A stretch of 62,342 nt of DNA, counting the filler, from Hausera hauseri (taxonomy: Eukaryota), in assembly GCA_046269625.1 (NCBI GenBank). It is 11 parts of 11 records of this genome, joined end to end, with 100 filler letters (N's around TTAATTAATTAA, not from the genome) between each part and the next. Parts side by side here need not be neighbours in the genome. Positions count along the whole stretch, not along the records: positions 48,328 to 58,043 come from JBJURY010303277.1; 10 more parts are not named here. One strand, 5' to 3'. The position numbers were made by a program, and so were the translations under genes. Below are positions 32,497 to 62,342 of this stretch, piece after piece (positions within the stretch are counted from its first letter, which is position 1; each line of letters starts with the position of its first letter). Below the pieces are notes generated by a model. It was not told the DNA's origin, made no database searches, and saw nothing but the letters and a program-made list of their open reading frames with translations.

Positions 32497-33159
32497 TTAC
32501 ATAAGCAATGAATAATATCCATAGGCGACACTGTGGTTTTTATCAACCCAGTGTCGTTTATCGTCAAAGGGATCCAGTGCCTTCTTTTTTGATGTGATGG
32601 TCATGAGCTGGTGGTTCTTACTGCCAATTCGCTCTTGGTCTACCATTGTGCTGCAACCGGATTCATACGCCTGCAAGTAGTTATTGAATTGCAAGTCTGT
32701 TTGCCTGAGGTTGATTCCTTTGCACTTGAGCACTGGTTTGGATTGGGTTTTGAGAGCGTATGATTTTGGGCGTAAGAAAATGGCTTCTTGATACTGGACA
32801 CTGCCCTTGCTCTCATCTTTGAATTTGCCAATGACAGAAGCGAAAGCAGTAGAGTACAGCGGATCACTTTTATCATAGTTAGATGTATCTAACTGTTCAT
32901 TTGCTATCATAGCAGGTAGCAGTTGGGATTGTAAGTCCACACCATGGCATTCAATGAAGAAACTATCAGTGTCACCAGCAACAATATTTAACTGACAATG
33001 AAACTGTTGCCTATAAGACTCCAACTCGATATAATTAAGCTCATACATTCTCAATTTAGATAGATCAAGTACAGCCTGACCAATGTATGAGGGCCTATCT
33101 AATGTGACCATGTCTTTATCGAGGAGAACAGCAACCAGATCATTATCAATAATAATGCT
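32497..33159 (-). mobile_element. pPolB C-terminal part (open frame to the contig edge)
   Basis: DRPSYIGQAVLDLSK, AGDTDSFF, LDTSNY, GKFKDE, LRPKSY, CKG, DDKR; same family as 38530-41439. Confidence 0.93.
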
Positions 33160-33291
33160 NNNNNNNNNNNNNNNNNNNNNNNNNNNNNNNNNNNNNNNNN
33201 NNNTTAATTAATTAANNNNNNNNNNNNNNNNNNNNNNNNNNNNNNNNNNNNNNNNNNNNTGTACATTTTTTGATTTATTTTATTTTTTCTC

Positions 33292-33361
33292 AAATGTATA
33301 CCATAATTTCCGGACAACAAAAATCGCTAAAATGTATACCATATTTCCGGACGGAGGGAGT
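33292..33361. mobile_element. Tc1/mariner-type (Stowaway-like) MITE terminus
   Basis: GGACGGAGGGAGT terminal motif preceded by two AAATGTATACCAT..TTTCCGGAC sub-repeats; only one end is present. Confidence 0.55.
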
Positions 33362-33777
33362 GCACAATTATGATTAAATACGTTTAATCAACTTTTTCAT
33401 TACAATACAAAGCGAAGCAGAAAATACAAGTCCAATGAAAAAATTAATACGTTGCCGTTTTCGTTTCCACTCATCTTTGATACGTTTTACGAAGAGAAAT
33501 CGGACTATTAATTCAATTTACTATTGCCTGCTCATTATCCTCGTTTGTGTCAGCTCACATAGATGCTGAACGTCAAATACATGTGCAGTAATTATTTTAT
33601 GTCAATTTCTGAATTTCACTCTCAACGTACTCTTCCATGCAAGTTTTAATATGTAATATGGCTGATATGTTTATACCTACCTAAAAGAAATAAGTTATTG
33701 CATATCAATTTATTATGCAACTGTATTTAATATTTTTGATTTAAAGTTAACATTTACTTTAATTTGTTTAAATTTAG

Positions 33778-36700: not shown

Positions 36701-37419
36701 GGTTCATTGGCGTCTGCTACAGTTCTACATGCAGCTTGGTGTACGTGTCACACAACTGCATCGTGCAATCCGATTTGCCCAAGCTCCAATATTCAATGTG
36801 TACATAGATGGAAATTCGGAGAAACGAGGCGCAGCTTGTACAAAATTTAAAAAGGACTACAAGCTAAAAAACAATTCTCTCTACGGAAAAACGGCGGAGA
36901 ATCTGAAAAGCCACTCAATGTGCGCCTACGTAATATCAAAAAATGGCTGGTCACGTACACGAGTAAGGCACAGTTTTTGAAGTCAATGCAGATTGCCAAT
37001 GTATTGGTTGCGGTGCTGTTAAAAAGAGAAGAAGACGTTTTGGACCGGCCAAGTTACATCGGACAGGTGGTATTGGACTTGAGCAAGTTGCAGATATATG
37101 AGCTACAGTATCGCGATTTGGCACATTACCGGCAAATGTATGACAGCTGTGACATTAGTATAATTGCAGGTGCCACAGACAGTTTTTCCTGCGGCTGAAA
37201 AAAGACAATTGCGAACAGTTACAGCAGCAAATGCAGTTAAATAAATTACTGGACACGTCCAACTATCCACAGGATCATCTTTTGTACAGAAGGTCGATCA
37301 CTAACGAAATCGGCTGCTTCAAAGATAAAAGTGAAGGTCAGGTTCAGTATCGGGAATGGGTATTTCTACGGCCAAAATGCTATAGCCTTTTAATTGACGG
37401 TGGACCGAAAATCATTTAA
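33778..37419 (+). mobile_element. Polinton/Maverick-type pPolB, decayed; close relative of 15135-18770
   Basis: Colinear nucleotide similarity with contig 4; YADIE, DHDNFAGLYLGAAC, KGIFP, YLKLD, INNLY, KLKNNSLYGKT.EN, AGATDS, GCFKD, LRPKCY; truncated at the 3' end. Confidence 0.93.
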
Positions 37420-43499: not shown

Positions 43500-46400
43500 C
43501 ATTTTCAATGGCTTAAAGCCAATCACACCACAGTTTCTTTCTTGCAGACGAACAGCTTGCTGCTTTTTCCAGCAAATATCAAGCAGAAAATTAATAATCT
43601 TGCCGATATACTTACCTCTTTTAATCATATGACATGCTGTATGAATCAGACCCTTCCATTGACAGCATAATACAAAAATACTTTAATGAACATGCTATCG
43701 GAACTCAGAAGCCGTCTGATTTCCTTAAAACCGCTATTTCTCAATTGAGTTCCTTAGGCGTCACTCCTACGATCAATGCCGATCGTCTTCGTCAGTATTT
43801 TTTTCTTCCTTGTCCACCTCTATCAGAGCGTTTTTTACTGTCGTAGACAATTCAACGGCACTCGAGAAACTCGCCTTACTGGCAGATAGAAGTTACGAAA
43901 TCTTACAATTAAATAGCTCACAATCAGTAGCTGCAGCAACCGCTCACACATCATCAAACACATAACATTTTATTTTTACAACAACTGCAAATGATGCAGA
44001 AAAAGTTCGACACATTCCAACAGGCAATTTCTGCGATTACAGCCCAACTTAGTGATTTATCTGTGCCTCGAAGAAGCAAAAACCGTGTCTCGCGTAATCG
44101 TAGCCTTTCCAGGGATTCCTTTCGATCCAAATCTCGAGATGGATGAATAATTTGTTTTTATCACAACAAATTTGGCAGTGATGCAAGGAAGTGTCTTTTG
44201 GGCTGTCGATTTTACGATGAACGTTATGCAGTAGACAACCAAATCTGCATTTATCACACAAAGCATCAGTCCAAGGCTAGGTCGTATGTGCCAGGATGCG
44301 AATATTATAAAAAGAATTCCAGTTTTTCTCCATCTTCTTCGCCTCCTCCTACTCATCATTCCTCTTCTTTTTACCAAAAAGCCTCAAAAACTAATAACGC
44401 CGCCAGATGCCACGGCACATTCTGGTGTAGGCAATATCGCTCAATCCTCTGGCCGTTTCAACATCGCCTCTGCAGTCTTTCTGTTGAAAGCTGAACTGTT
44501 ATTTGGAGACACCTCACACAGATTTCCTTATCGATTCAGGAGCTGCCTTTTCACTTCTTCCTTTGTCCTTCGCTCCTACATCTAACATGTTTCTCTCCTC
44601 CACTCTTTACTGCCTGTGGTCAATCCTTAAACATTGTACGTACCACAAAACTGTCCTTCACATTCTCCAACCTACCAAGGAAATTCTTTTGGAAATTTCA
44701 CATAGCCACTATTAGATCGCCCATAATAGGATCCGATTTCCTGACTGCATACGATTTGTTAGTCGACTGTAAGCATAGATGACGCCTGCGCAGAAACTCC
44801 GTTGCAAATACCAACAAATGCTCACCAGACAACCAGTCACACACCTTGTCCTCCTCTGTTCATTCAAATGTCAATTTGACATGCTGTTCATCGGCTAATA
44901 ACAATAAGTTTAATAATTCATCCACATTTTCAATTTCGTCAAGTGGGAACAAAACAATCTTGAAACGATCGGTTGAACCGAATGTAGTTAATGAAGTGTT
45001 TACTCATTCTACATCAATTACAGCCACTGACTCATCATTTTTATCGTTGAAATCCAATCTTAAATCCTACATTAAAACTTCTTGTTTCCGCACTCTCAAG
45101 AAGGACGTCAATTTCAAGCCGCATTCTACAACTTATCATTACATAGTTACCGAACACCAAAGACCTATCAGACAAAATGTCAGATCACTGTCACCTTGTA
45201 GGTGAAAAGCCGTTGAATATGAGTTCAATGAACTCGAAAGGCAGGAATTATTCGAAGATCCAAATCTCCAACGGCTTCACCTTTGCATATAGTGATAAAG
45301 AAAGATTGCACTTACAGACCATAGGGTGACTGTCTGCAGTTAAACAACCTAACAGCTCTGGATGCTTAGCCTTTACCTCTCATAAAGGACATACTGCACA
45401 GTCTTACCAATACTAATACGTACTCCACAATTTACTTGCATAAAGCTCATCATCATATTCCGGTTGCACCCGATGATATTCCAAAAACTGCTGTTACTAC
45501 TCCATTTGGCCTCTATGAATATATCTTTATGCCATTTGGTTTACGCAGTGCTTTCCAAACTTTTTAACGACACATTGATACCGTCCTCTAATGTCTTGAC
45601 TTTGCTCATCCATACATTGATGACATATTAGTTGCCTCCACATATGTTAAACAACATCAAAAACACCTCCGTATTATCTTTCACAGACTACATCACAGAA
45701 ATTTGCAAGTCAATTTTTCTAAGTGTCATTTTTTCAAAATTGTGTTAATTTCCTAGGCCACATGATCACTCCTAATGGCCACTCCCCACAACTGGATTGA
45801 TTACAACAATTGAAAAACATAATGCTGCCAACGACCACGACGGATACGAGGAGTTTCTTAGGCACACTCCGCTTCATCCATAAATACGTACCTCATTGTT
45901 CTGAGCTCATGGCACCTTTCGCACATCTTTCTTCAGGAAAGAAGAGGCAATTAATCCACTGGACTCCTGATTTAGTCGCCAAATTTGAACACTTATGCGA
46001 AGGCCTAAAAACCGTAGAAACACTGGCCTATAGGAAACTCAAAGCAGATCTTATACTTACAACCGATGCCTCTACCACAGCTACCGGTGCAGTGCTACAC
46101 TAGATTTCTAACGGCGTCGATGAATTATTAAAATTTTACTACAGGAAACTGACACAACTCGAAAGCCGTTACTCAGCATTTGACCGTGAGTTACTTGCAA
46201 TAGTTCTAGGAGTAAAACATTTCAAAGAGCTACTTCTTTCTCGTGCATTTGTTATTCAAACTGACCACAAGCCGTTCCTGCACATCATGTCGTTAAAATA
46301 ACCATGGCCGAGGGAAGAGCGACATATATCACACCTGTCTAAAGTTCAGTTTTGTTTTGGAATACATCTCAGGCACAGATAATTTGGTAACAGATTTTCT

Positions 46401-47985
46401 ATCAAGGTCGGTGGGCTCCATTATAGTTGAGCCGACTTTTTCATCCGAAGTCTTAAGGGCAAATCTACCGTCTGCTTACTTTCTTAGTTCCTTCAAATCC
46501 TTCGAGATCATTGATGGCATTGTTATTGATATGTCGAAAAACGATAATAAAAAGATCATTCTAGCACCACCTTTACAAAAGCCAGCTTTTGTTCATACGC
46601 ATTCATTCAATCATCCAGGTTCGAAAGCAACCTTTCGCCTACTTCAACGTCATGTAGTTTGGCAATCAATGCGCAAAGATGTACAGAGCTGGGTTAAAGA
46701 ATGCGTAGCCTGTCAAAAATACAAAATAAACACATACCTTAAACCTCCGCTTTACCATTTTCCCTGTACATCAAGCTTTCATACAGTTCATCTTAATCTC
46801 GTTGGCCCTTAACTCCTTACTATAATGGATCGCGCTTCTCGCTGGCCTGAAGCCGTTCCTTTTCGTTCAATGAACACTGATTCAGTAGCTGACGCCTTTA
46901 TAAAAATCTGGATCAGTCGTTCTGGTTCCCCACGTTACATAATAACGGATCAAGGTCAACAATTTAAATCAGAACTCTTCACATGGCTTGTAAAACACTT
47001 GGTGATATCCCATTTCCATAGAACTCCATTTCATTATAAAGCAAATGCCATCCTTAAAAGATTCCATCGAACAATGAAAGTTTCTTAAAAAATCTTAGCT
47101 GACACTCATCGTAAGTGGATGTCAATTCTACCATTAGTTCTACTAGGTTGGCGCAACAAACCTTCTATCACTACCGGTTGTGCTCCAGCCGAAGCACTCT
47201 TTGGGACTCCAATTCGGATCTTATTTGAACTTTCTGATCTCGACGACAACCCCACAGACGAAAACATTAGTGCAGCGCAATCTCACTTCGTCGAGGTCAG
47301 CTCAGATTTATTCTGTCGTCTCTTTAACAACAATAAATCCTATATTCCATAGTATTTATACTCCGCCAAGTTTGCGTGGCTTAAGGATCAATCGCCTACA
47401 GGTTTTCGACCTCAATATGTTGGTTTATACAAACTGATGAATCTCTAATCTCATACGCATTTCGAATCTGAAGCCCGCTTTCTTCACTGATGACAATCTA
47501 GATGCCAATTTTACCTCCAACTCAAACTCAACTTCTACTCCTACGGATTTTCTAAATAGCTTTGTGCCGTTGCAGCAATCACTATTCTGTCACACTCAAG
47601 CATCATCATGTCTTCCATTCATCTCACCCCCTCTCCGTCATCATGCTCATTACCTTCTTTACTTCCTTTACCTACATCGACTGTTTCATCACCTCTAACT
47701 GCATCGCCTTTTTTGCTTGACTCGTGTTCTCTATCATCTCCATCATAAAATATCACTCAACAGCCTAACACAAACCAATCGAGTAAAAAACGCAAAGTCA
47801 CTTTTAGCACCTACAGCAAAGAAAAGTTCTTTGATGGTACACAACGCCTAACTCATACTAAAACCGAATAGGCTCCAAACATTGTTTCTTGTTGCGACTC
47901 AATTTCCTTATACATATTATCTTCATCATTCTTTTTTCGCCTTTACATAGCTTCTTTTCTGCCACGGCGGGTGATATGGTGCCGC
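43500..47985 (+). mobile_element. Ty3/Gypsy element of CsRn1-like lineage, decayed (gag-PR-RT-RH-IN, PPT)
   Basis: Gag QKPSDFL, two CHCC-type motifs (CFYHNKFGSDARKCLLGC; CIYHTKHQSKARSYVPGC), protease LIDSGA, RT PFGL/YIDD, TTDAS, FDRELLA, integrase RWPEA/TDQG.QF, S/T-rich tail, G-rich tract at ~47965 followed by an LTR-start-like TATGGTGCC. Confidence 0.92.
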
Positions 47986-48449
47986 GGGCGCGGGCGCGAA
48001 TCGTGTTCTCATATCAAAAGAGGCAGCAGATTACGAGGATTTTTGACCTTTCAAGGTCGGTGTTCAAGGAGAAAATCATTTGCTCAAAATTGATCAGTAA
48101 TTTAGTGGTTAGATGTCTTGCACTTCGTTCCAAATAAAAATTTGCATCATTTTACACTTCTACAGTGTTCTCTTCCAGCAGACAAAAGCATATAGACAAA
48201 AATTTCGTCTCAAGTCAAAATTTACGTNNNNNNNNNNNNNNNNNNNNNNNNNNNNNNNNNNNNNNNNNNNNTTAATTAATTAANNNNNNNNNNNNNNNNN
48301 NNNNNNNNNNNNNNNNNNNNNNNNNNNGAAAAAATCCTTAATCTGAATACAATTAAATTATTTTAATATTTTTATTATTTTAATTTACATATTAATTTTT
48401 TTTTGAAAAATTTTATTTACGCATAGCTAAGACAGATTTACCCCACTAT

Positions 48450-51400
48450 TTAATCCAATCGCCTTTTACGCTCGAGGATATGGGATTGCACGTAAGGCAG
48501 ATCCTGACAAAATCCTCGCGAACGAGTAAAAGGGCGATTACGAGTATCTAAATCATCGACCACAACAACGTCCCCACTAACATTTAAATTATGAGAGTGT
48601 ATATCGGAACTTGTCCCGGAGTGTACAGGAGTGTTTACGACACTTGTGTCAATGATATCGTCCCCATGCTCGTCGACAAAGCCTTCGAAGTCCAAGGCTC
48701 GATCTGCAAACCCTTCAAAATCACGGTTTGGGTCCTCGAAACCTTCGAAGTCTTGACTTAAATCTGAGAAACCACCAAAATCTTCCCATTGTAAAGACGA
48801 AATATCCGACTCTAAATCATCGGAAAGAGAAACCCAGTCAACCAATTCCGAGAAACTTACTTTCTTTGGACCTCCAGGTGACTCTGGAGACCTCTTCCCG
48901 GAGGGAAAAATCGGCGGAAACGCGATGTCATATCTCCGCAGGAAGGAAGAAAGATCAGGTGATCCTGTTGGAGTCAACGGAATTGTTTCGCTTTGACTGG
49001 AACCGCTGAAAAGCGTAAACGTCTTCTGAGGACTGGTAAGATCTGCAATAACCGTTGTTAACTGGCTAATAGTGCGCAAAATACTCTGCACTTTTGCTAG
49101 GGACGTACGTGTCTCTTCATCCATTACAAAACCTTCGAAATCATCATCATCCTCTGACTCCAAAGATGGACCGACGTCACGACGAATATACTCGCGTTGA
49201 CCATCGATGAGAGGATCCGATGTAGTGGAACTGGTTATCACCGGTACTTCTTGCATAGCCTTGGCACTGAACTCTTCATGCTCCTGCAAGTACATTGGAG
49301 GAATCTGCCAACGCTTGACCTGGCTATGATGAACCCGGTAAACGCGACTTTCCTGAAGAGATTGAACTTCGTAGGTGACCTTATTTGCGTTTGCCCTGAT
49401 GATCTTCAAAGGGCCCAAATACCTTGGTAACAATTTATTTGTAACCAGGTCACCAGGAAATGGTCGCTTCATGCCCACTAGATCACCGACTTTAAAAGTG
49501 GTAAACAAAGGATGACCAGGCTTCCAGTAAGATTCAACGTTCTGCACTGGAAGGCCAAAAGACGATTTGTGGGCCTTTTCCATAATGCTTTCGCACGGCG
49601 TCAACAACGTCTGGGCATGCTGAGTATGGTTGTATGTAACCAGTATATGGGGTAATTTAGTATCCCAGTTAGAACTGGTTGCTAGCGATACTCGCAAATA
49701 CTGAAGAAGCGTTCGATTTACACGCTCGACTACCCCATTGGATGAAGGTTTATATGGTGTTGTAACTACATGTTTTATGTTATACCTATCTAATAAGTTT
49801 TGGAATTCATTTCCAATAAATTCTTTCCCATTATCAGTTAATAACCTCTCGGGCAGTTTTGGCAATAAAGGCAAAACATAACGTTGCAATGCCAGCGCTA
49901 CCGTAGAGGATTGCTTATTACGCAATGGGATGGCAGATACCCATTTAGAGTAATGGTCCACCATAACTAATAAATACTTATTCCCTAAACTTGATACCGG
50001 CAATTGCATTAAATCAACTGCGGTAAGCTCAAAAGGCCTATAGGTAACAATCTTGAACATCGGAGGGACAGCCAACATATTCGATAATTTGGAAGACTGG
50101 CACACATGACAAGTAGTTGGCACGTCATGACAAATCTTATATAAAGACGGATGCCAGATTTGCTTCTCCAATAACGCGGTTAACTTGTTCCTCCCTAGGT
50201 GAGCATATTCCAAATGGCTTTTTACCACTACATCTACGGCAAGTGAAAAAGGTACTACAGCGGGATGATTACCCTTAGAAGTTTTTCTACGTAAAATATT
50301 TACACAAAAATTGTAGTCCTTTTTGAACCTTAAGAAGGACTTCATCTCCCCTGATAAACGTCCTTCAATGCGCCTGGGGTTTTTAATAAATTTCACGAGG
50401 TTCCGGACGGTCCGATCCGCGAACTGAGCTTGCCGAATAGTGTCATCCGACAGCATGGAATCCTCGAACAGGATTTCCTCATCCGCTGACTCGTCCAGTC
50501 GGATGCACATTAACTGGATATTATTCGATACCGATACCAATACTTGTGATTCCGATTCCGATCTCGTTAATTCCGAGTTAGATTCTCGTACCACCGAAAC
50601 CGATACCTCCCCACCAGACCCGAACTCGGTTTGACCGCTAAGGTTAGGCTTATTACCTGTTGATTCTTCTTTTAACTCAAACGACTCATCAAGGAGATTA
50701 AAAGAAACAAAATTTCCCTCAATCTCCCCATGATGTCGTGTGTCTTGTAGTATACAAGGTTCGGAGTCTGGTGAAGTACCCAGTAATAAATTGTAATGAA
50801 CACCCCCCAAACACAATAATCTACACAATTTTTCGCCTGTGATTGGGCCGAATCTCAATGGTTCACCACTGCCGTAGTATACCCAAATCCTAGAATTATA
50901 TAAATTCGCGAACGCTTCGATGGCTTCGGTGATGGGTAATTGGCCTCCTTGCTTCATTAGCTTGAGCAATTTGGTCACCCCCACGTGATTTCGTCCGCTC
51001 AATAAGCCATACTTTTGCTTATGATCCAGAAGCTCTTGGATAGCTTCCTCCCGCAACTGGAAATGCTTGTCCATCGCCCCAAATTGCCAAAGCGCTAAGC
51101 ACATAAACAGAGAATCACCTCCTCCGGGAACTTTATGTTCAAAACATCCCGGAGGTAACTCGACCTCGGGAGGCGACGTGGAAATCTCTTGTGCTGGCGT
51201 CACTGGGGACCTAGACAAGGCATCCGCGACTACGTTTTGTCGGCCCGGAATATACCGAAGTTCATAATCGATATCGTTGATTTCTTCCAACGTCCGGGCG
51301 ACACGCTGATTTACGAGAGACATACTGTTTAAATAGATCAAGGGTTTATGGTCAGTATGAATAATGACCTTAATACCATACAAAAATGGCTTAAGGGACT

Positions 51401-53648
51401 TAACCGCCCATCGAATAGCCGCGACTTCCTTTTCGGTTGTACTATATTTTACCTCGGCTTTCGAAAAGGTTGTGGAGATATACGCGATCGGCTTGAGCTC
51501 CCCTTGTTGCTCCTGAGCAAGGCAGGCTCCCGCTCCTACGTTGGAGGCATCGACAAACAACATGAGCGGTGGCGCATCAGGCTGACGATTGGGATAAACC
51601 AACAAGGTGGGATTGGTTAACTCCTTTTTCAGCTGGTCGAACGCATTCTGACATTCTAACGTCCAGCTTAAAGTCCGCTTCCCCAAAATCTCAAACAACG
51701 GCTTCGCTATCTCTGAACAACGCGGAATATGCCGACGATAAAAATTAACCATGCCAAGGAATTGGCGTACTTTCCGTATCGTAGTTGGAACGGGAAAGTC
51801 TTTAATTCCTTGTAGGCTTTTCTGTAACGGGATCATTCCGCTTTCCGAAACAATATGGCCCAGGTATTGTACCTCTTTCCTGAGCAAAAACGTTTTACTG
51901 GGCTTTATCTTAAACCCAGTATTGGAGAATGCTTCTAGCACCTTTTCTAAAATAATTAAATGCTCCTCAAACGTTTTGCTGACTATTAAGACGTCGTCCA
52001 GGTACACCATGGCTTCCGTCCACGGAATATGAGATAGAGCGTACCTCATGCCCCGTTGGAAAGTAGCGGGTCCATTTTTAACCCCAAAAGGCATCCTAAG
52101 AAATTCCCAATGGGACAGGGGAGTAGTGAAGGCGGTTAGCTCAATGCTATCCTCCTCCATCTCTACTTGATAGTACCCCTTGACCAAGTCAAGGGTAGAA
52201 AAGTACTTCACCCCCTGTAAACTAAACAGCATGTCTATCAAGTTGGGAATAGGGAAACTATCTCCCTTCGTGATCTTGTTGAGTTCCCTGTAGTCAATAC
52301 AAAGTCTCATCGATCCATCCTTTTTCTTGATAGGCACTACAGGAGCGGAATATGGAGATTTGCTCAGTCTATTGATCCCTTCGGATTCCAACTTTTTGCA
52401 GCTATCTTCGACCTCGCGCAAAATCGGGCCTTGTAATCGGCGGACGGGCAACTGCACGGGAGTGTCATCGATAATTTCAATTCGGTGCTTTATGACCGAC
52501 GTGCATCCAACATCCCCATCGTGCAGGCTTAGAGCATCCGGATATTTTAACAACAGAGTCAGAAGCTGATCCCGCTGATCCTCGGTTATATCCGAATCCT
52601 CAATTCTGAAGTCAGAATTCAATTTGTCCACCGACCAAACGACTCCTTGTTCGGCATTGTGAGTTTCTGGCAACTCTACGACGTTTGCCTGAACCGATTC
52701 CGATTCCGTGAATTCAATAACTCCGACTCTTTGACCCTTTTTGCATTTTAAATACCCTGGACCTTCATTGTAAGCCAGGATATAAGCCCGATCTTCTCGG
52801 AGCTGCAAAATTGCGCATGGCGAAACGAATTTACACTGTGCATCACATGAGAATATTGAAATCTTATCCCTATCTAAAAATTGGTTAGGTATAACTATTT
52901 CTACTAATTTACCCATATAAGGACCCAAGGAAAAAGATTCGGCTAAAAAGCAACTAATACTTTCTTTTTCCTCCAGTCGTGTATCAAACGCGACTGGTTG
53001 TACGAGATTGCCTGTACGAAGGACTAATTCTCGCTCCCGCAAGTCAGGTAACAAATGTTCTGACTGCAAGATGTCAAATCCTAAGATAATATCATGATGA
53101 GTAAGCTCATCCGGTATTATCACAAAAGTGTGAGCTTCCAGAATATAAGACGCTGAAAAACCCAACTGTAAATCCACGGCCCCTATAATAGGATATCTTA
53201 CTCTCCCTATGCCGCTAATACTGCGATATATCGTAGTCCTAAGAGGAAATAATCCAGTTTCCAACTGATCATAACAACGACGAGTGATCAGGCTCACAGT
53301 GGCTCCTGTGTCGACGAAGGCAACAAACGAAACGTTTGGTTGGTCAGGCACACGCACCTTAACCAACAAGGCGTCCGACGACAATGCTGTCAACCCAAAC
53401 TCAATGCTGGGCTGCCCATCTAAATTGTCGACTTCACCTGCTTCTTCATTGTCGACGGGAATATCAGACGGGTGATCCGCTGACTTGCCTTCTAAGAAGT
53501 CTAAATCGGCCGCTGTTAAAATAGGATCGATTCCTAATAGATCCTGGATAATAGGTATCCGTTCCTCCGATGAGGGCGATGTCAAGACATCATTGACCTC
53601 ATCCTGCTCTGTGTCGAGGACTTCTGACACAGGCGGACTCAGTTTCCC
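48450..53648 (-). CDS. pol: Pol polyprotein: protease, RT, RNase H, OTU-like domain, integrase, acidic tail (expressed by -1 frameshift)
   Basis: FVDTGA, CIDYR.LN, MPFGVKNGPATFQ, YLDD, VDAS, TDHKPL, ADALSR, H..HLG..CHVC, VDL, TDNGKEF, NG.VERVN; the ORF track frame is open from 53771. Confidence 0.96.
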   Translation of the reverse strand, partial: GKLSPPVSEVLDTEQDEVNDVLTSPSSEERIPIIQDLLGIDPILTAADLDFLEGKSADHPSDIPVDNEEAGEVDNLDGQPSIEFGLTALSSDALLVKVRVPDQPNVSFVAFVDTGATVSLITRRCYDQLETGLFPLRTTIYRSISGIGRVRYPIIGAVDLQLGFSASYILEAHTFVIIPDELTHHDIILGFDILQSEHLLPDLRERELVLRTGNLVQPVAFDTRLEEKESISCFLAESFSLGPYMGKLVEIVIPNQFLDRDKISIFSCDAQCKFVSPCAILQLREDRAYILAYNEGPGYLKCKKGQRVGVIEFTESESVQANVVELPETHNAEQGVVWSVDKLNSDFRIEDSDITEDQRDQLLTLLLKYPDALSLHDGDVGCTSVIKHRIEIIDDTPVQLPVRRLQGPILREVEDSCKKLESEGINRLSKSPYSAPVVPIKKKDGSMRLCIDYRELNKITKGDSFPIPNLIDMLFSLQGVKYFSTLDLVKGYYQVEMEEDSIELTAFTTPLSHWEFLRMPFGVKNGPATFQRGMRYALSHIPWTEAMVYLDDVLIVSKTFEEHLIILEKVLEAFSNTGFKIKPSKTFLLRKEVQYLGHIVSESGMIPLQKSLQGIKDFPVPTTIRKVRQFLGMVNFYRRHIPRCSEIAKPLFEILGKRTLSWTLECQNAFDQLKKELTNPTLLVYPNRQPDAPPLMLFVDASNVGAGACLAQEQQGELKPIAYISTTFSKAEVKYSTTEKEVAAIRWAVKSLKPFLYGIKVIIHTDHKPLIYLNSMSLVNQRVARTLEEINDIDYELRYIPGRQNVVADALSRSPVTPAQEISTSPPEVELPPGCFEHKVPGGGDSLFMCLALWQFGAMDKHFQLREEAIQELLDHKQKYGLLSGRNHVGVTKLLKLMKQGGQLPITEAIEAFANLYNSRIWVYYGSGEPLRFGPITGEKLCRLLCLGGVHYNLLLGTSPDSEPCILQDTRHHGEIEGNFVSFNLLDESFELKEESTGNKPNLSGQTEFGSGGEVSVSVVRESNSELTRSESESQVLVSVSNNIQLMCIRLDESADEEILFEDSMLSDDTIRQAQFADRTVRNLVKFIKNPRRIEGRLSGEMKSFLRFKKDYNFCVNILRRKTSKGNHPAVVPFSLAVDVVVKSHLEYAHLGRNKLTALLEKQIWHPSLYKICHDVPTTCHVCQSSKLSNMLAVPPMFKIVTYRPFELTAVDLMQLPVSSLGNKYLLVMVDHYSKWVSAIPLRNKQSSTVALALQRYVLPLLPKLPERLLTDNGKEFIGNEFQNLLDRYNIKHVVTTPYKPSSNGVVERVNRTLLQYLRVSLATSSNWDTKLPHILVTYNHTQHAQTLLTPCESIMEKAHKSSFGLPVQNVESYWKPGHPLFTTFKVGDLVGMKRPFPGDLVTNKLLPRYLGPLKIIRANANKVTYEVQSLQESRVYRVHHSQVKRWQIPPMYLQEHEEFSAKAMQEVPVITSSTTSDPLIDGQREYIRRDVGPSLESEDDDDFEGFVMDEETRTSLAKVQSILRTISQLTTVIADLTSPQKTFTLFSGSSQSETIPLTPTGSPDLSSFLRRYDIAFPPIFPSGKRSPESPGGPKKVSFSELVDWVSLSDDLESDISSLQWEDFGGFSDLSQDFEGFEDPNRDFEGFADRALDFEGFVDEHGDDIIDTSVVNTPVHSGTSSDIHSHNLNVSGDVVVVDDLDTRNRPFTRSRGFCQDLPYVQSHILERKRRLD
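53609..53648 (-). promoter_or_regulatory. Programmed -1 ribosomal frameshift signal
   Basis: G GGA AAC slippery heptamer (53648-53642) immediately before the gag stop, in the correct phase to enter pol; followed by a CTGTGTC/GACACAG stem (53632-53609). Confidence 0.85.
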
Positions 53649-55366
53649 TGCCGATTTGTGCAATTTATGCCCAAGTGAGGCCCTTGACAGAAGGGGCATT
53701 TGGGCTCGTCGGGGCGGTCTCTCGACGGACAGTCGGGAGCCAAATGTCCCCGCTCTTTGCAAATCGCACACTTATGAAGGGCAATGTAGCACTCTTCATA
53801 AGTGTGCCCACGCTTACCACAATAGTGGCACAAGGGTCGCTTGTGGCACTGTCCCATTTGGTGGCCCTTCTTCTTACAGAAGGAACACTTCTGGGGCGAA
53901 CCCTGCGGCTGGCTCCTTGGTGGGTCTCGCGGAGGCGAGTTCGTCGGCGTATAAACACGACGAGGAGACTGCCGCTGAGACTTCGGGCTCGGCGGAGTCC
54001 CATTCTTCCTCTTGGGCGGACTAGGCGGCGGGCTCGGCTTCTTCCTCTGCCCCGTCCTATTTGGCGACTTAGGAGGCGAAGCTGGGGCATCCGACCTCCT
54101 ATACGCAGAATTATAATAATAATTATTTCCACTGTTTGTCTTCGGCCTCGCACCTTGAGCAGCTTTGGCATAAGAACGGGGAGGAGTCGGGTACAAGGGA
54201 GCAGGCAATGGGGCTGATGGCCCAGGCAACACTTGATATGCCTCCGGTTGTTGAGCAACCCGAGGTTGGTGCTGCCCATAACCACAAGAACCACACTGGT
54301 TGCACCAGCCCCCTGCTGGCGTCACCGCGGCCAGATCTATGACCTCGGGCGCATGATTCATCCCTGTTGGAGGGTGTGTCAATGACGGCATATTCGAGTC
54401 CACCAAGGACACGAATCTCTCCCAAGACATCTTCCTTCCCATGGTCCTTTCATAATCCCTGCGAGCGTTTTCCACATGAAAACGGATTGCAGGGGGGACA
54501 CTCGCCAAAAACCGTTGACGGACCAACGGTAAGTTCTCAACGTCGCACTTGGGAAGCGCTCGTTGGGCTAATCCCAACAAGCGAATGGCGAACACCGACA
54601 TGGGTTCGTCATCATGTCGAGCTGCTTCCAAGAAACGTGTGGAGTGCATTTCCTCCTCACGGTCCAACTCGTCCTGAGACCACTGAAGAAGAATTTCCTT
54701 CATCTCTTCATAAGATGCAACGGATCTCAGGGCCACGAGATAAACTTGGAGGACAGGACCATCTAAATGCTGTCGCAAGAGATGCAGGTAACCGGTGGTA
54801 TCGTCACCAGAATACATCTCCTGACAATGTGCTTCGAATCGCCGGAGGAACGCAAAGACAGGTTCTCCACTCTCCGGCGAATAAACTCCCAAAGGTTTGG
54901 GTCGGCGTCTAGGATTTATCATCGATGCCTGGAGTAACTCGGACATACGCTGGACAAGAATCTGGTTTTGTCTAACCAGATCGTTGACCAGAGCTGCCCA
55001 ATCTCCAGGTGAAGACGCTTGAGGTGTGCTTACAGGTGGCAAACCCGAAACTTGAGGCATTTGTTGCGGCGTTGACGTCGCAGTCGTCAACGGCGGCAAA
55101 TTACAAGACGCTGTTGTGGTCATAGTCATTTGATTGTTCAAATATACTTTATTATTATTGTCACTTGGATTTGGCCAGTTTATATTAGACATGAGCATTG
55201 ATGCTTGCAAATTATCAGGATTAGTAGTTATCAACCGCTGTGTATAGGGGTTAGTAAGTTGGGGAGGCTTAGCCTCCACTTGTGATGATTCGGCGGAACG
55301 CATAGGCAAATTGAGCTCATCCACACTATCATTTAGCAAATTCGTTGCTCCTTGTACACCGTCCAT
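53639..55366 (-). CDS. gag: Gag, 575 aa, four CCHC zinc knuckles
   Basis: Capsid-like region (FLRRFE, RHDDEPMSVFAIRL), P/S/R-rich linker, then CSFCKKKGHQMGQC, CHYCGKRGHTYEEC, CAICKERGHLAPDC, CPFCQGPHLGINC. Confidence 0.95.
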   Translation of the reverse strand: MDGVQGATNLLNDSVDELNLPMRSAESSQVEAKPPQLTNPYTQRLITTNPDNLQASMLMSNINWPNPSDNNNKVYLNNQMTMTTTASCNLPPLTTATSTPQQMPQVSGLPPVSTPQASSPGDWAALVNDLVRQNQILVQRMSELLQASMINPRRRPKPLGVYSPESGEPVFAFLRRFEAHCQEMYSGDDTTGYLHLLRQHLDGPVLQVYLVALRSVASYEEMKEILLQWSQDELDREEEMHSTRFLEAARHDDEPMSVFAIRLLGLAQRALPKCDVENLPLVRQRFLASVPPAIRFHVENARRDYERTMGRKMSWERFVSLVDSNMPSLTHPPTGMNHAPEVIDLAAVTPAGGWCNQCGSCGYGQHQPRVAQQPEAYQVLPGPSAPLPAPLYPTPPRSYAKAAQGARPKTNSGNNYYYNSAYRRSDAPASPPKSPNRTGQRKKPSPPPSPPKRKNGTPPSPKSQRQSPRRVYTPTNSPPRDPPRSQPQGSPQKCSFCKKKGHQMGQCHKRPLCHYCGKRGHTYEECYIALHKCAICKERGHLAPDCPSRDRPDEPKCPFCQGPHLGINCTNRQGN

Positions 55367-55479
55367 TCCACTTGTATTCTACAAAAAAGGGACGACAGTA
55401 AAAGGAAAAATGAAAAATGAGGATGGGTGCTTCAAGCACAATTAAAGAATGTGCAAAGTGCACGGCAGCGAAGAGCGGG

Positions 55480-55497
55480 AACTACGCTCTGCTACCA
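55480..55497 (-). promoter_or_regulatory. Primer-binding site, initiator Met tRNA
   Basis: TGGTAGCAGAGCGTAGTT, 4 nt after the LTR end, is complementary to the ..CTCTGCTACCA 3' end of animal tRNA-iMet. Confidence 0.88.
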
Positions 55498-55501
55498 AAT
55501 A

Positions 55502-55780
55502 TGTAAAAGGAGGGTGTCGTGTCGTTGGTGTTGGTCGTGTCGTGTGGGTGTTATGTCACCACGTTAGTAGGGAGGATTGTGTTCCTATCCTTACTAAGCA
55601 CACGCTCTGGTTAGCTCGGGTAAAACCCTACCAAGGTTAAGCAGGTATTCCTGACAACGCACGCAAGTTCTCCCTGTTAATCCTATCGTTCCCACTCTCG
55701 CATGCAGCTCTAATAGCACTTTTACTCTCTCTCAACTCCCCACTATTGCGCTCAATTTTCCCCTTTACTATTCACTTACA
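55502..55780 (-). repeat. LTR (collapsed single copy, 279 bp)
   Basis: TGTAA...TTACA termini on the minus strand, preceded by purine tract GGGGAATAAAAAG (55794-55782) and followed by the PBS. Confidence 0.78.
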
Positions 55781-56481
55781 ACTTTTTATTCCCCAAACGT
55801 ATAATTACTAATTTATTATTAAAGAGATTATATAATGGAAACCGAATTATTTACCTGCATTATAATATTAACGAAAACAAACTTCGGATCAAATGTCTTC
55901 GTGATCTTGAAGCCGTATGGGGCCCCTTGACTTCACAATATGATCCAAGATATTTCTTGTGTTTTCCATCATTAATACCATGCCGAACATGAAAATATAA
56001 AACAAATCAATACATGTTTCGGCTAGGGGTTACAACTAATTAATTAATATAAATAATAAAAACATATATCAAATATATATATCAATTAGATATCATGACT
56101 TATATGAAATAAATTCATACCGGGTGTTTTACCCGTTGACTGAATAGTCGATTTAATTAGTTTCCCGTATGGAATTTTTATTTACTTTGAAATGCCTGTT
56201 TGTATTTTATTTATAATTTTATTATTAAAAAGAAAAAAAAAACAATTAAAAAAAATTCATCTCACCATTATATAAAGAAATATAAAAATAAACAAAATTA
56301 GTTTGTTTCCGAGATTTCCCAGAGAAGGGAATAAAATCAGCAACTCCCCTGGGCGGACCGGACTGGAACCTCACCAATGGCCGTCCCCCTGCACTCCTCC
56401 CCACCCGCCGAGTAACGGCGGACCAAGTCGCAGTGCCGCAGGGGACTCCAGTGAGTGTCCGCTCCAGGTGCTGGATAGCTA

Positions 56482-57957
56482 TTACTCCCAGGCATCCCAG
56501 AGAAACTGACGCGCTTCTCCGGGAGCTGGGTAGTAATCAAAGGCGGCCCAGTAGCCCTCTAAACGTGAGACCGCCGAATTGATTTCTTCACGTAGCTCTC
56601 CCCAAAGACGTGGAGGAATGAAACCTGGGGGCGCCATACCTCGGGTAGATGAATGAGGCCTACGGTGTGGTAGTCGGGGAGCCCCCGAAAATCTGGGGAA
56701 TCTCCCGGGTCCGACTCGACGGAAACCCCTGCGCCCCCGACCACGGAAACCTGGCTGAGCACCGGGATAGGCTGCAGCCGCGGGAACTGGAGGGCGAAAA
56801 CCCCTTCCCAGCCCCTGAAGTTCCGGCAATGTCATTGGGCCAGGCTGACCCAAAATAACATCTCCAGATGTTCCTCTTTGAGGAGAAACTATCGGCTCTG
56901 TTGTCTCAGGGGCCGAGCGTTCGGTACCCCTGGCAGATGGAACTCGCCTTCGTTGCCGACCCTTCCCCTTGTTAGTCAGTCCCCTCCCCCTTGTGGTGTT
57001 AGTGCCACGTGGCGGATTCGCCACCCCGGATGGACCAGGTAAAGAATCAGAGAGATTTGGAGGGAGACCTCCCAACTCCTGGGAATCAACGGGCTCATCA
57101 GGGAAATGTAGGCGGGATTTAAGAGAGGCCCTCGACGAAGCGGCTCTATCCGAAGAGGATGAACTCTGGCGTGACGCCTGGGTTTTAATACCCAATCGGC
57201 GACTCACTCCAAGCTGTGAAAACAGCTGATTGAAAATGAGCCGGCAAGCCAATTTCGTAGGGTGGACCCCATCCCGTAAATAGCCTTTTCCTCGAAGGGT
57301 ATGACTGTGCCCGGAGAGAAAATCATCCAGAGCACGGTGATAAGGAGCGTGTCTACCAAGGATGGAAGACCCACTAAGACGCTCCCCTTCGGTGATACAT
57401 CCCCCGATCAGCTGTGAGGTAGGATCTATTATATCCAAATACCTCTTAACGGTGGATGTATAAAGTTTTAGTTCATCTAAATCAGGCATCTCTTTGTATT
57501 TTTGTTTAATCGCCGACGGCGCTCGACGAAGATCTCGCTGGTTCTTAAAGTTCAAGTCAAGAGGTGGTGGTATAAAAATATACACCTTAGCGTTGGGAGC
57601 TATTACTTTGACTCTTGACTTGAACGTAAAGTAATCCAGGACGAATGTGTCTAAATTAAAGTCCGGGTTAGGCCGTATGGCAAAATAGTTTCTTTTGCTA
57701 TCAGGGCCGCTTAAACTGTGCCTTTGAAATGCCTCCGTTATCAGGGAGAACAACACGACATGCGTGATGTCATCCTTGAGAACTTGGGGTAAAGAAATTA
57801 CCAGTTGTTTCAAGGAAGCCCCGGGATAAGGAGCAAAGGTCACTTGCGACTCTGATATTCCATGGTCTTTGCTGGAGAAGGAATCTCGCAAACAGCTAAC
57901 CCAAGAATGACCGATGATTAAGATCTGAAAAGACAACATAAAATCTGGTAAGAACAC
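56482..57957 (-). CDS. ORF3: SGNH/GDSL hydrolase domain plus R/G/P-rich disordered tail
   Basis: Block I ILIIGHS, block II YPGA, block V DGVHP; block III Asn absent. The first ATG is at 57939. It lies ~130 nt after the pol stop once the contig is circularised. Confidence 0.85.
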   Translation of the reverse strand: MFLPDFMLSFQILIIGHSWVSCLRDSFSSKDHGISESQVTFAPYPGASLKQLVISLPQVLKDDITHVVLFSLITEAFQRHSLSGPDSKRNYFAIRPNPDFNLDTFVLDYFTFKSRVKVIAPNAKVYIFIPPPLDLNFKNQRDLRRAPSAIKQKYKEMPDLDELKLYTSTVKRYLDIIDPTSQLIGGCITEGERLSGSSILGRHAPYHRALDDFLSGHSHTLRGKGYLRDGVHPTKLACRLIFNQLFSQLGVSRRLGIKTQASRQSSSSSDRAASSRASLKSRLHFPDEPVDSQELGGLPPNLSDSLPGPSGVANPPRGTNTTRGRGLTNKGKGRQRRRVPSARGTERSAPETTEPIVSPQRGTSGDVILGQPGPMTLPELQGLGRGFRPPVPAAAAYPGAQPGFRGRGRRGFRRVGPGRFPRFSGAPRLPHRRPHSSTRGMAPPGFIPPRLWGELREEINSAVSRLEGYWAAFDYYPAPGEARQFLWDAWE

Positions 57958-58143
57958 TAAGATCCCGAAAAAATCCTTAATCTGAATACAATTAAATTAT
58001 TTTAATATTTTTATTATTTTAATTTACATATTAATTTTTTTTTNNNNNNNNNNNNNNNNNNNNNNNNNNNNNNNNNNNNNNNNNNNNTTAATTAATTAAN
58101 NNNNNNNNNNNNNNNNNNNNNNNNNNNNNNNNNNNNNNNNNNN

Positions 58144-61100
58144 TTCACTCCCGCAAACAGTACTTTACACCATGTAGTTACACAGCATCAACGACCAATA
58201 TTCCAAAGGATACGGCATATGTCACCTCGTCGTAGACAGGCCGTAGAAGCCGAATTTCTTAAACTAGAACGTTCCGCCATAGTACGCCGTTCCAAATCTA
58301 CTTGGTCATCACCTTTATACGTTGTACAAAAAAGGACGGTACTTTTAGACTATACGGTAACTACGGACAGCTGAACAACTTGACTATCATGAATGCGTAC
58401 CCTTTACCACTCATCAAGGATATCTTGCATCGTCTTAATTCAACCACCATCTATTCGACTATTGATTTAGCTAAGGAATAGCATCAAATATCTGTAGCAC
58501 CCGAAGACATAAAAAACTGCTGTAACTACTCCTTTTGGTCTCTACGAATACTTGTTTATGCCATTCGGTTTGAGGAATGCCGCACAAACTTTTCAGCGCC
58601 ACATTAATTCAATTCTTTTAGATTTATCGTTTACACATCATTATATCAATGATATTCTAGTCGTTTTATCTTCGGCCAAACAACACTAGGAACACCTTCG
58701 CGCAATATTCCAACGCCTTAACCACCATAATCTCCAAGTCAATTTTGACAAATTCCATTTCTTCAAAAATCGCATTAGCTTTTTAGGCCACGTTATTACA
58801 CCAGACGGTCATTCTCCCCAACCAGACCGAGTCGAAGCTCTTAAAAATATAAAGTTGCTACGAATAACCACTGAAATGTCAGTTTCATTGGTACACTACA
58901 CTTTGTAAATATATATGTACCATATTGCTCCGAATTGACAGCATCATTCGTACACCTAAGCGGTGGCAAAAAACATCAGCCAATCCAGTGGACACCTGAA
59001 TCGATCGACAAATTTGATAAGCTACGCGAGGGAATTAAGACCGTCGATATACTTGTTTTCCCCAAGCCTGATGCAGAACTTATCCTTACTACAAACGCGT
59101 CAGCCATTGCAGTAGGCGTTGCAGTACAATGGAAAAAATCAACCACTAGAATTTTTCTCTCGCAAGCTGACATCCAATGAAACCAGATATTCAACGTTCG
59201 ATCAAGAACTATTGGCCATCGTTCGCGTTTTAAAGCATTTCTCACACCTACTTGTTGCTCGTCATTTTACTATACAAACCGATCACAAGCCCTTACTTAA
59301 CATCATGGCTATGAAACACCCTTCCACACACCAAGAACGCCAGATATCATACTTATCGACATTTAACTTCGACATTAAACCTATTAACGGGGTTAACAAT
59401 TTGGTTGCCGATTTTTTATATAGGTCGGTTAGTTCGATTAATTTTTTACCGATTTTTACGCAAGATCAACTTCAACAGAAACAGTCACCTCAGGACATGT
59501 TTAATTCTTTTAAGTCTTGCACAATCGTTGACGGCGTGGCTTTAAACACTTCAAAACTAGGCAATTCCGAAATAATTCTAGCATCATTATTGCAAAAGCA
59601 AGTATTTCACAGCGTGCATTCATTACACCATCCCGGTGCTAAAGCCACTTTTCGTTTACTCCATCGACAAGTAATTTGGCCGTCAATGCGTTCTGATATG
59701 CAGGCATGGGTTAAGGAGTGTGTGGCTTGCCAAAAATACAAAACAACTAAGCACTTAAAGCCATAACTGCTCCACTTTCCCTGCACATCGCGTTTCGAGC
59801 CCGTGCATATTGACATCGTTGGCCCTCTTCCCCTAGATAACGGTCATCAATTCATTCTTACCATAATGGACCGTTCCTTGCGATGGCCAGAAGCCATCCC
59901 TCTGCGGAGTACGAACACCGATAGAATAGCTGACGTTTTCATTCGTACATGGATTAGCAGATTTGGATCACTCCACAGTTTGAATCCAACCTGTTCAAAT
60001 CCCTTGTTAAACGATCGTGAATCCATCACATACACACTACGTCTAACCATCCCCAATTAAATGGCCTCCTAGAACGCTTCCACCGAACATTGAAAACGTA
60101 ACTAAGAATCCTTTCATAGTCTAACACCAGTCGGACGAATCTTCTTCCGTTTGTTCTGCTCGGCTGGCGGAACACTCCGTCTATTTCTACGAGATGCTCA
60201 CCCACTGAAGCCTTATTCAAAGCTCCAGTACCATCATTTTTCGAACTAACTGCCCTAGACGACACCCCTACAGATGAAACGATACGGGCGGCCCAAATCA
60301 CTTCGTTACGGTCAGCAAAGATTCGTTCTCTAGGATACTTCACAAAGACAAAACATATTTACCCGAAAACTTGTATTCGGCAAAATTCGTATGGCCAAAA
60401 AATCAGACGCCGTGCGGTTTTCAGCCGCGGTATCTGCAGCCCTATAAACTGATACAGCTGCATTAACATAATGCTATTATCTCTAAAGACGGCAAAGAAC
60501 TTACAGTACATATTACCAACTTAAAGCCCGACTTCTTTGTCGACGATACTTCACCAATCGACACGTCAACCTCTTTCCTCACTTTTACACTTCCTGTTGT
60601 TCCTTTATCTGTTGCTACATCAGTTTCACCTCCTCCTTCTGCTTCTAGTTCTACTTCATCATTCTCCACACCTTGTACTTCTATTTCTATCTCTTTTTCT
60701 TTCTCTACCACTCCGTCTGTCTCATCTTCTACTTCTACTCTTCCGCCTAACACAATTCCAATTTCTACTTCAATTTTCGTCTCTCCTCCTTTATCCGCTA
60801 CTTCACCTTTTGTCACTCCTTCGCCTTCTAACACTCTCTTGAATACCTTTACCCTTCTGTCTCCAACAATCTCTCCCTCCTTCACATTCTTCTTCTTTTC
60901 GTTCTGACTCGTCTTTGCACAACGCAACACTCACAACAAAATCTGACAATTTTTCCCCAACTTCAACCTCTGCAAGCAAACACACCGCATACAGACAAAA
61001 CATGCAGAGTCATATTTAGCAAGTATAGCAGGGAAAAATCAGTAGAAGGCACTCAATGTCTTGTTCACACTAAGATCAACTGATACAGACACTTTTCGTT

Positions 61101-61494: not shown

Positions 61495-62342
61495 ATGCAA
61501 GATGATGAAGAGGTGGAATTAAGTCAAAAAATTCTACATCTTTGTGCAAACCTGCATGATCAAGATCCAGGAATTTTGCAAGTCAAAATCATCAAATTTA
61601 TCATAGTATCAGAATGGAATGTGCATTTATTCTTACTCTGTCCCACAGAAATATGGAAGTTGTCTGCAAGGCACTGGACGATAAGGTATTTGACCGTGAG
61701 AAGCGATTTACCGTGAAATCGTCGGTATTTGAACGAGTAATTCATGATAATACCTGTCTACAGATACAAGACCTCCCCATAGAAAGAATATCACAAATGG
61801 AACAACTGACCATTTTGAAATGGCGATCATTTCTCTGTGTACCCATTGTTAATCAAGCCGACTGTACAGTTAGCGCCTTGGTTTGCCTTATAAATAAAAT
61901 GGGATCTGATAGATTTTCCGAAAAAGACATTTTCATAACCAAATTAGTGTTTCGGTATACTGCAGCCGTGTTAACAAGCAGCGTTTCATTTCAAAACAAA
62001 AGAAAACTCAAAGTTCAGATTGAGACTATGATTCAAGTGGCAATGAATATTTTCCGTAAGCTGGAAGATTTGACAGTACTGATGAAGGAAATCATAACGG
62101 AAGCAAAAAAGCTTACGGATGCAGAATAATGCTCTGTATTTCTCGTCGACAATGACTCGAAGGAGTTAGTTGCAAAGGTTTTTGATGGATTGACTACAGT
62201 TTCCGATACTTGTCAACATCCAAAGGAGATATAATCCCAACTAACCAATGTGTGGCAGGCCATGTTGCATGTACTAAAGAGATGCTAAATATATCAGATG
62301 CCTACAGTTACCCCTTGTTTTATCGGAAAGTTGATGATGAAA
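61495..62342 (+). pseudogene. PDE2A: cGMP-stimulated phosphodiesterase 2 GAF-A/GAF-B region, intronless and disrupted
   Basis: KIL.LC..L.D.D...LQ.K, LCVP+V, YT..VLTS...FQ...[44 protein letters not shown]; frameshift at ~61610, stop at 62127, frameshift at ~62230. Confidence 0.88.

Follow-up and report, generated by a model that had tools for sequence, protein, structure and literature searches.

Organization of the element and its Pol polyprotein

The window analysed in the present study is a stretch of 62,342 nucleotides from Hausera hauseri that consists of separate contigs joined by N spacers, and one of these contigs (48328-58043) carries a Ty3/Gypsy LTR (long terminal repeat) retrotransposon whose Pol polyprotein contains an additional OTU-fold domain without the catalytic Cys. 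The assignment of the element follows from its gag and the subsequent PR-RT-RH-IN order (protease, reverse transcriptase, RNase H and integrase): Pfam identified protease, RT, RNase H, integrase zinc finger and integrase core in the Ty3/Gypsy order, with RT_RNaseH at Pol 702-853, Integrase_H2C2 at 1173-1227 and rve at 1244-1341. The same whole-Pol search gave no Pfam match between Pol 853 and 1173, and it is here, between RNase H and integrase and in the same open frame of 1773 codons (53771-48450, minus strand), that the OTU domain is placed. The features of pol are as follows.

50766..51161, minus strand: OTU-fold domain without catalytic Cys, 132 residues, Pol 870-1001 (profile, AlphaFold2 model and structure matches)
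51111..51122, minus strand: Cys loop, with Gly883 in the place of the OTU Asp, Asp885, and Ser886 in the place of the catalytic Cys (alignment to solved OTUs)
50943..51020, minus strand: basic helical arm, Pol 917-942, net charge +6 (charge count)
50934..50939, minus strand: variable loop Leu944-Pro945, in the place of an aromatic and a small residue in solved OTUs (alignment)
50790..50813, minus strand: His loop, with Cys986 in the place of the OTU aromatic, His991 and Asn993 (alignment)
48450..53771, minus strand: pol open frame, 1773 codons from stop to stop, PR-RT-RNase H-OTU-linker-IN (open reading frame and Pfam)
53064..53330, minus strand: aspartic protease, motif DTGA (Pfam)
51849..52331, minus strand: RT, motif YLDD (Pfam)
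51210..51665, minus strand: RNase H, ending in ADALSR and followed by a 16-residue Pro-rich spacer to the OTU domain (Pfam and sequence)
50424..50765, minus strand: acidic linker with a hydrophobic stretch before the integrase, a likely protease site (sequence)
49746..50252, minus strand: integrase zinc finger and core (Pfam)

An earlier note on this DNA had proposed an OTU-like domain at 50785..51145, with Ser at the catalytic Cys position and the His kept in an intact frame. The location was right, although the folded domain is slightly larger (51161-50766), and all of the motifs quoted in that note are present in the minus-strand translation: HKVPGGGDSLFMCLA starts at codon 51137-51135, the Ser is encoded by TCT at 51113-51111 and the His by CAT at 50798-50796, all within the 1773 open codons. 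Contigs of sequencing run X1, which may be the source sample, span the OTU domain and show no difference in 50766-51161 among the rows listed.

Fold of the domain

A profile of the 54-sequence family, compared with the PDB, matched OTUD3 with E=2.9e-9 and OTUD5 with 3.1e-7, followed by OTUD2, yeast Otu1 and OTUD1, and eight of its nine matches were OTU domains. AlphaFold2, provided with the relatives, modelled the domain with a pLDDT (predicted local distance difference test) of 95 and a pTM (predicted template modelling score) of 0.88, and Foldseek searches with this model ranked OTUD5, OTUD1 and OTUD3 first (E 7e-9 to 2e-8, TM 0.76-0.83). In addition, a VIA structure comparison of the model with OTUD3 gave a Z of 17.8 and an rmsd (root mean square deviation) of 2.4 over 128 of the 132 residues, and the Atlas model of one relative matched OTU clusters with TM values of 0.71-0.76. 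With a leave-out profile of 85 relatives, from which the query and its 17 closest relatives were excluded, the real Pol scored 102.5 bits and 200 shuffled sequences scored 3.2 or less. Judged by predicted fold and sequence homology together, the domain is a member of the OTU fold superfamily, as the earlier note had supposed; the lack of any such fold, which that note had named as a point that would count against it, is not what AlphaFold2, Foldseek and VIA predict.

The compact OTU deubiquitinases OTUD3, OTUD5/DUBA, OTUD1 and yeast Otu2 (PF02338) have a like fold (Z 15.5-17.8, rmsd 2.2-3.1), the same order of Cys, variable and His loops and the same His-x-Asn/Asp motif. The Gypsy domain differs from them at 16-24% identity in lacking the catalytic Cys, in the change of Asp to Gly, in the loss of the tail-clamping aromatics, in its basic arm and in its position inside a polyprotein. 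As a single sequence it is matched weakly, with OTUD3 as the only PDB match (E=1.2) and Pfam OTU at E=0.15, so that annotation pipelines miss it; the precomputed Pfam lists of the Pol relatives and of the profile-search matches contain no OTU label. PF02338 matches at E up to 1 were obtained for 17 of the 54 family members (best 4.8e-6), the query falling below the curated cut-off, and single-sequence fold prediction was unusable (pLDDT 46).

Distribution among relatives and selection

A search with Pol 470-1400 scored 8000 proteins, 1386 of them with E below 1e-20; 120 of these Pol relatives were listed, and 102 of the 120 have the OTU domain in the same place; together with the present element they form the set of 103 rows used below. 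The 18 listed relatives without the domain are all from Cordylochernes scorpioides and are separated from the others by a branch with full support in trees of RT-RNase H, which were built from search matches only. As these 18 rows are the sole outgroup, a single origin of the OTU capture is no more than the simplest reading. In 103/103 rows the Cys loop follows the end of RNase H at a distance of 27-37 residues; the distance to the integrase ranges from about 110 to 290 across the measured rows.

A profile search, run through a word index with 7998 scored candidates, gave 54 matches that included 43 new clusters, all with retroelement Pfam domains and none stand-alone. Clustered at 90% identity, the proteins of the lineage fall into at least 146 groups. 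The OTU stretch alone matched 0 of 155 candidates among full-length proteins, within the limit of the word index, and a related-locus scan of viral contigs gave 0 loci. Motif scans gave 27 loci, two of which (L005 and L008) encode the domain, the other 25 being chance matches. Armadillidium vulgare, an isopod, is the only named eukaryotic host among the matches, with many long copies on chromosome-size contigs, and most other matching records are metagenome contigs. Some Gypsy Pol proteins of eukaryotic type (P0047, P0052 and cluster members) have been deposited under Bacteroidota and cyanobacterial metagenome-assembled genomes, labels that likely reflect eukaryotic DNA binned with bacteria.

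Comparison with L005 shows a domain under purifying selection, with pN (non-synonymous differences per site) of 0.34 and pS (synonymous differences per site) of 0.91, a comparison that is qualitative because synonymous sites are saturated against this locus; pN was 0.31 for the integrase, 0.36 for the protease and 0.49 for the linker. Against 15 close relatives, mean identity came to 43% in the OTU domain, compared with 41% in the integrase zinc finger and 25% in the linker. If the domain were a dead passenger, simply carried along in frame after its capture, this would account for the missing catalytic Cys and for the decay of the pocket in one sub-clade. Such a neutral relic is nevertheless barely credible and largely refuted, as the domain is kept in 103/103 clade members over RT distances that exceed one change per site, has a pN far below its pS and is as conserved as the integrase zinc finger.

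Active-site and ubiquitin-contact residues

At the catalytic position, Cys was found in none of the 145 domain copies that have a residue there (one fragment lacks this position); the residue was Ser in 126, Thr in eight, Ala in eight, Met in two and Phe in one. A private mutation to Ser is ruled out by these counts, and Cys-bearing homologues, which the earlier note had also named as a point against its proposal, were not found among these copies. Its view of the domain as a pseudo-deubiquitinase stands, given the OTU fold and the 145 copies without Cys. Its question of whether Ser is fixed has a divided answer: Cys is absent from all 145 copies, and the domain may be a serine variant, which that note gave as an alternative, but Ser is not invariant, being replaced by Ala or Thr in 8/93 rows even outside a degenerate sub-clade of ten rows.

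The neighbouring positions are altered as well. The Asp three residues before the Cys position, a feature of active OTUs, is Gly in 103/103 rows and in 42/42 further copies. In the variable loop, which in OTUs has a role in holding the ubiquitin tail, position 944 is aromatic in 6/103 rows and position 945 is Pro in 85/103 and Gly in none, whereas the aligned solved OTUD3, OTUD5 and OTUD2 have F/H/W and A/G/G respectively. At position 986, where OTUD3 and OTUD5 have Tyr, 81/103 rows have Cys and 2/103 an aromatic residue. His991 (94/103) and Asn or Asp at position 993 (93/103) keep the His and the Asp/Asn two residues on that active OTUs have, and Asp885 is kept in 91/103. With the catalytic Cys, the Cys-loop Asp and the tail-holding aromatic and small residues all changed, three defining features of active OTU deubiquitinases are missing, and by its residues the domain is not a canonical deubiquitinase.

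Similar changes have been described in host genes. Drosophila Otu and CG3251 and the pseudo-deubiquitinase OTULINL likewise have Ser at the catalytic position with the His kept, and CG3251 also has a non-aromatic first His-loop residue (PMC4654579). According to Louis et al. (PMC4654579), the His-loop aromatic contacts the ubiquitin C-terminus, and its loss accompanies the failure of fly OTUs of the Ser type to cut or bind ubiquitin. In contrast with the Gypsy domain, these proteins keep the Asp and arose repeatedly within a Cys-bearing family, whereas here the loss is fixed across a mobile-element clade, with no Cys-bearing member found among 145 copies. Papain-like families that carry Ser have been characterized as rare and little explored (PMC10318531).

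Could the domain bind ubiquitin or a ubiquitin-like protein without cutting it, and so shield Pol from degradation or read ubiquitin marks on chromatin or on the particle? The OTU fold is complete and all of the top structure matches are ubiquitin or ISG15 enzymes; in another deubiquitinase a small residue at the Cys position permits ubiquitin binding (10.64898/2026.10.20.760496), and an action on the ubiquitin system has been suggested for the OTU or Ulp1 domains of other transposons (PMC2836005). However, the residues that clamp the tail are changed clade-wide, the charge of the arm is reversed relative to OTUD3 and OTUD2, and CG3251, with a similar His-loop change, showed no chain binding, a result given as 'data not shown' (PMC4654579). 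We therefore regard this explanation as unlikely: the altered clamp residues and the basic arm make ubiquitin binding by the domain doubtful, and the ubiquitin-binding module of the earlier note is weakened by the clade-wide changes of Cys-loop Asp, variable-loop pair and His-loop aromatic.

The basic arm and a possible role beside RT

The helical arm of OTUs is part of their ubiquitin-binding surface. In the Gypsy lineage the net charge of this arm (Pol 917-942) has a median of +5, is at least +1 in 103/103 rows and at least +3 in 91/103, and is never 0 or below, with Lys or Arg in 72-82 of the 103 rows at five positions on one helix face; the stretches that align with it in OTUD3, OTUD2 and OTUD5 have charges of -4, -3 and +1 respectively. 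The ten-row sub-clade (P0027, P0028, P0029, P0032, P0047, P0052, P0055, P0066, P0072 and P0100) keeps the domain with a decayed pocket: its arm is +2 to +6, His remains in 2/10 and Ser886 in 1/10, and Ser replaces Cys986 in 10/10. The domain has thus been retained there independently of the pocket.

The explanation that we prefer, tentatively and at somewhat less than an even chance, is that of a non-proteolytic module that stays on the C-terminus of RT and binds nucleic acid. Nucleic-acid binding was among the suggestions of the earlier note and gains support from the basic arm. This explanation is favoured by the fact that the fold with its basic helix is common to all members, including those without a pocket. 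An ancestor of this Gypsy lineage would have captured the domain once, from a compact OTUD1/3/5-type OTU or from a mobile-element OTU, and repurposed it. Alignment to solved OTUs suggests that the domain would perform no canonical isopeptide cutting and would be a poor fit for threading a ubiquitin tail. The tether to RNase H is short and of fixed length, and a hydrophobic stretch occurs just before the integrase but not at this tether, which suggests that the domain stays on RT: the element protease would cut after the domain and not before it, giving a mature RT-RNase H-OTU protein inside the particle, and the domain would be packaged with RT. The least certain steps are that the basic helix might contact the RNA or DNA substrate, and that the old active-site pocket (the Gly-rich loop at the helix start, Ser, His, Asn and Cys) might hold a phosphate or a small polar group. 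A complex prediction for RT-RNase H with the OTU domain, in which the alignment was unused, scored 0.00 and is evidence neither way.

Several observations weigh against this role. The hydrophobic stretch ahead of the integrase, and its lack at the RNase H-OTU junction, were read by eye as evidence of cleavage; the arm of OTUD5, which is an active enzyme, likewise ends in basic residues; and the whole domain is near neutral, with a median net charge of +1 and a median of -4 for the rest of the domain, so that the partner of the basic arm could instead be an acidic protein or the acidic linker. The main difficulty is the pocket itself, for in the 93 rows outside the degenerate sub-clade His is kept in 92/93, Asn or Asp in 92/93, Ser in 85/93 and Cys986 in 81/93; this resembles the conservation of a catalytic site and is more than a pure nucleic-acid clamp requires.

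These same counts, and the fact that all four residues decay together in the ten-row sub-clade, speak for a possible rebuilt hydrolase, in which a His991-Asn993 charge relay would serve Ser886, Cys986 or a His-activated water as nucleophile against a target other than the ubiquitin isopeptide, for instance an ester, ubiquitin attached by an ester bond, or a junction within Pol. Cys986, five residues before the His, is a second conserved candidate nucleophile that the earlier note did not contain; it and His991 lie at opposite ends of a predicted β-hairpin (model strands 111-118 and 122-128) and could be neighbours. Either Ser886 or Cys986 is kept in all 93 rows, save one mis-ended protein, which keeps Ser; neither is invariant, however, and since chance alone would predict roughly one row in 92 that has lost both, finding none is not significant. 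Ubiquitin-ester hydrolysis without a catalytic Cys, including a weak activity of OTULINL, is described in a 2026 preprint (10.64898/2026.10.20.760496), in which a Ser variant is nevertheless approximately 10^4-fold less efficient and Thr, which is present in eight rows here, abolishes activity. A Ser40-dependent activity of fly Otu has been reported but disputed (PMC12012553), and CG3251, a fly OTU of the Ser type, left ubiquitin chains, Nedd8, SUMO and peptides uncut (PMC4654579). The ten relatives that have long open Pol frames without the site also argue against a hydrolase, which we consider the strongest alternative, credible but somewhat unlikely. In its most specific form, in which the nucleophile moved to the His loop (Cys986-His991-Asn993) or became Ser, providing a fifth Pol activity that rides on RT and was followed in one sub-clade by the addition of a second aspartic protease, we hold it to be rather improbable.

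The joint conservation of Cys, His and Asp (81, 94 and 91 of 103) and the fixed tether length would also suit a structural domain, that is, a folded spacer or dimerization aid for RT or integrase in which Cys986, His991 and Asp885 bind a metal. We judge this to be quite improbable, as Cys986 gives way to Leu, Trp, His, Asn or Ser in 11 rows whose His and Asn are retained, and the Asn two residues after the His is the usual OTU relay and not a metal ligand.

A second protease behind the domain

The acidic linker of the present element (50424..50765, minus strand) takes the place in which 73 relatives have a second aspartic protease, directly after the OTU domain (PR-RT-RH-OTU-PR2-IN). By profile it is present in 73/73 members of one clade (support 99-100; bearing relatives within P0023-P0121, example L008:1924-2304) and in none of the other 30 rows, this element included. 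A gain in one lineage is the simplest reading of this pattern, although loss is also conceivable, as the other 30 rows do not form a resolved clade. The catalytic motif is mostly intact, being DTG or DSG in 63 of the 68 second proteases picked up by motif, and invariant Cys residues (68/68 at two columns) and a frequent C-x-H ahead of the motif are perhaps a metal site. In a tree of few columns the second proteases form one group apart from the first. In P0108 and P0110, Pfam labels and sequence place an SH3 domain between the OTU domain and the second protease, so that the OTU-protease junction has here captured a further domain.

Ddi1 is a shuttle protease that is aimed at ubiquitinated targets, and if the OTU domain did bind ubiquitin it might aim the second protease in the same way in the two-protease sub-clade. 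Against this, the second protease resembles retroelement proteases: these are its look-alikes among the Atlas rows shown, with no Ddi1 cluster among them, and its only protease match in the PDB was ASPRV1, at E 0.2. An origin of the second protease from Ddi1 is not supported by these matches.

Relation to OTU domains of other mobile elements and viruses

OTU domains in transposable elements are known from Ginger1 transposases, which are related to Gypsy integrase, and from Helitrons/Helentrons (PMC2836005, PMC6431247). These are DNA transposons in which the OTU, described as a cysteine protease, lies C-terminal to the transposase or in RepHel, whereas here it belongs to an LTR retrotransposon, lies N-terminal to the integrase and lacks the Cys. 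Viral OTUs (nairovirus L, flexi/tymo-like replicases and iridovirus) and baculovirus VP80 also have the fold within a viral polyprotein or virion protein; the nairovirus OTUs are active Cys enzymes against ubiquitin and ISG15, unlike the Gypsy domain. In BFVD, VP80 was the best viral match to our model, accounting for seven named rows of the top ten (E down to 3.5e-9, TM up to 0.81), and this match implies an OTU-fold domain in VP80; a literature search on an OTU in VP80 and the baculovirus nucleocapsid found no paper.

Plant Tat elements carry an extra RNase H. In the literature searched, other module-bearing Ty3/Gypsy elements had neither an OTU nor a second protease between RNase H and integrase, and no OTU domain was described in LTR elements, although an earlier mention, for example in a Repbase entry, is possible outside that scope. 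With OTUs already known in Ginger1 and Helitrons and Ser-OTUs in flies, a Cys-less OTU in an LTR element appears to be new within this literature. The Pol architecture of LTR elements is highly stable, and here a diverse lineage keeps an extra folded domain under selection, most of its sampled members also carry a second protease, and intact multi-copy members are present in an isopod genome. The approximately 145 variants with Ser, Ala or Thr, with or without the His-loop Cys, together with the pocket-less sub-clade, provide a natural series on the role of a Cys-less OTU, and the 132-residue domain is easy to express. In terms of the old proposal that transposons use ubiquitin-system domains, the fold has been kept here and the canonical chemistry has not.

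Remaining features of the element and of the window

The other features of the element are as follows.

48328..58043, minus strand: whole element, a single contig flanked by N spacers; the same 77 bases recur at either end
53639..55366, minus strand: gag, three CCHC knuckles (open reading frame and Pfam)
55480..55497, minus strand: primer-binding site (19/19 nt common to the relative locus L005)
55502..56345, minus strand: probable single collapsed LTR, ends approximate (from primer-binding site, purine tracts and contig breaks)
56482..57939, minus strand: third open reading frame (ORF3), in the env position of the circular contig, after pol round the circle; SGNH-like motifs by eye and an RG-rich tail

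The 77 identical bases at both ends suggest, as the simplest reading, that the contig is a circular assembly of a collapsed LTR element. GGGAAAC at 53648-53642 (minus strand) lies directly ahead of the gag stop, with pol in the -1 frame, and gag-pol is probably expressed by frameshift. The primer-binding site presumably matches initiator-Met tRNA. In L005 the terminal repeat is 125 nt. An LTR that starts right after pol and includes ORF3 is disfavoured by the flat depth and by contig breaks near 56316.

ORF3 had no match in Pfam, NCBIfam, PHROGs or the PDB, and its motifs GHSW and DGVHP, read by eye, are SGNH-like. It has no membrane helix, the top 19-residue hydropathy being 1.2, and thus does not resemble an errantivirus-like env; it is absent from L005, the closest full locus, and the relative locus L008 stops inside pol. 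The Ty3/Gypsy LTR elements of bdelloid rotifers resemble the present element, whose own LTR is a probable one, in gag, PR-RT-RH-IN, primer-binding site and LTR, and also have an extra ORF3 in the env position, which encodes GDSL/SGNH esterases or DEDDy (PMC5408684).

Other contigs of the window carry further retroelement remains. At 25913-29934 (plus strand) there is a broken BEL/Pao-like element (DUF1759, DUF1758 and integrase) with tandem CCCH zinc fingers just ahead of the protease, and further broken Gypsy pol pieces, none of which scores with the OTU profile, are found at 9486-11227, 45235-47217 and 58168-60248. The related contigs at 15000-18600 and 32500-37400 share blocks of 70-86% identity and have weak matches to type-B DNA polymerase, and are probably decayed Polinton-like elements. 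Finally, an open reading frame at 61560-62126 (plus strand), on a contig otherwise made up of retroelement remains, has a weak GAF-domain match (E 4e-4).

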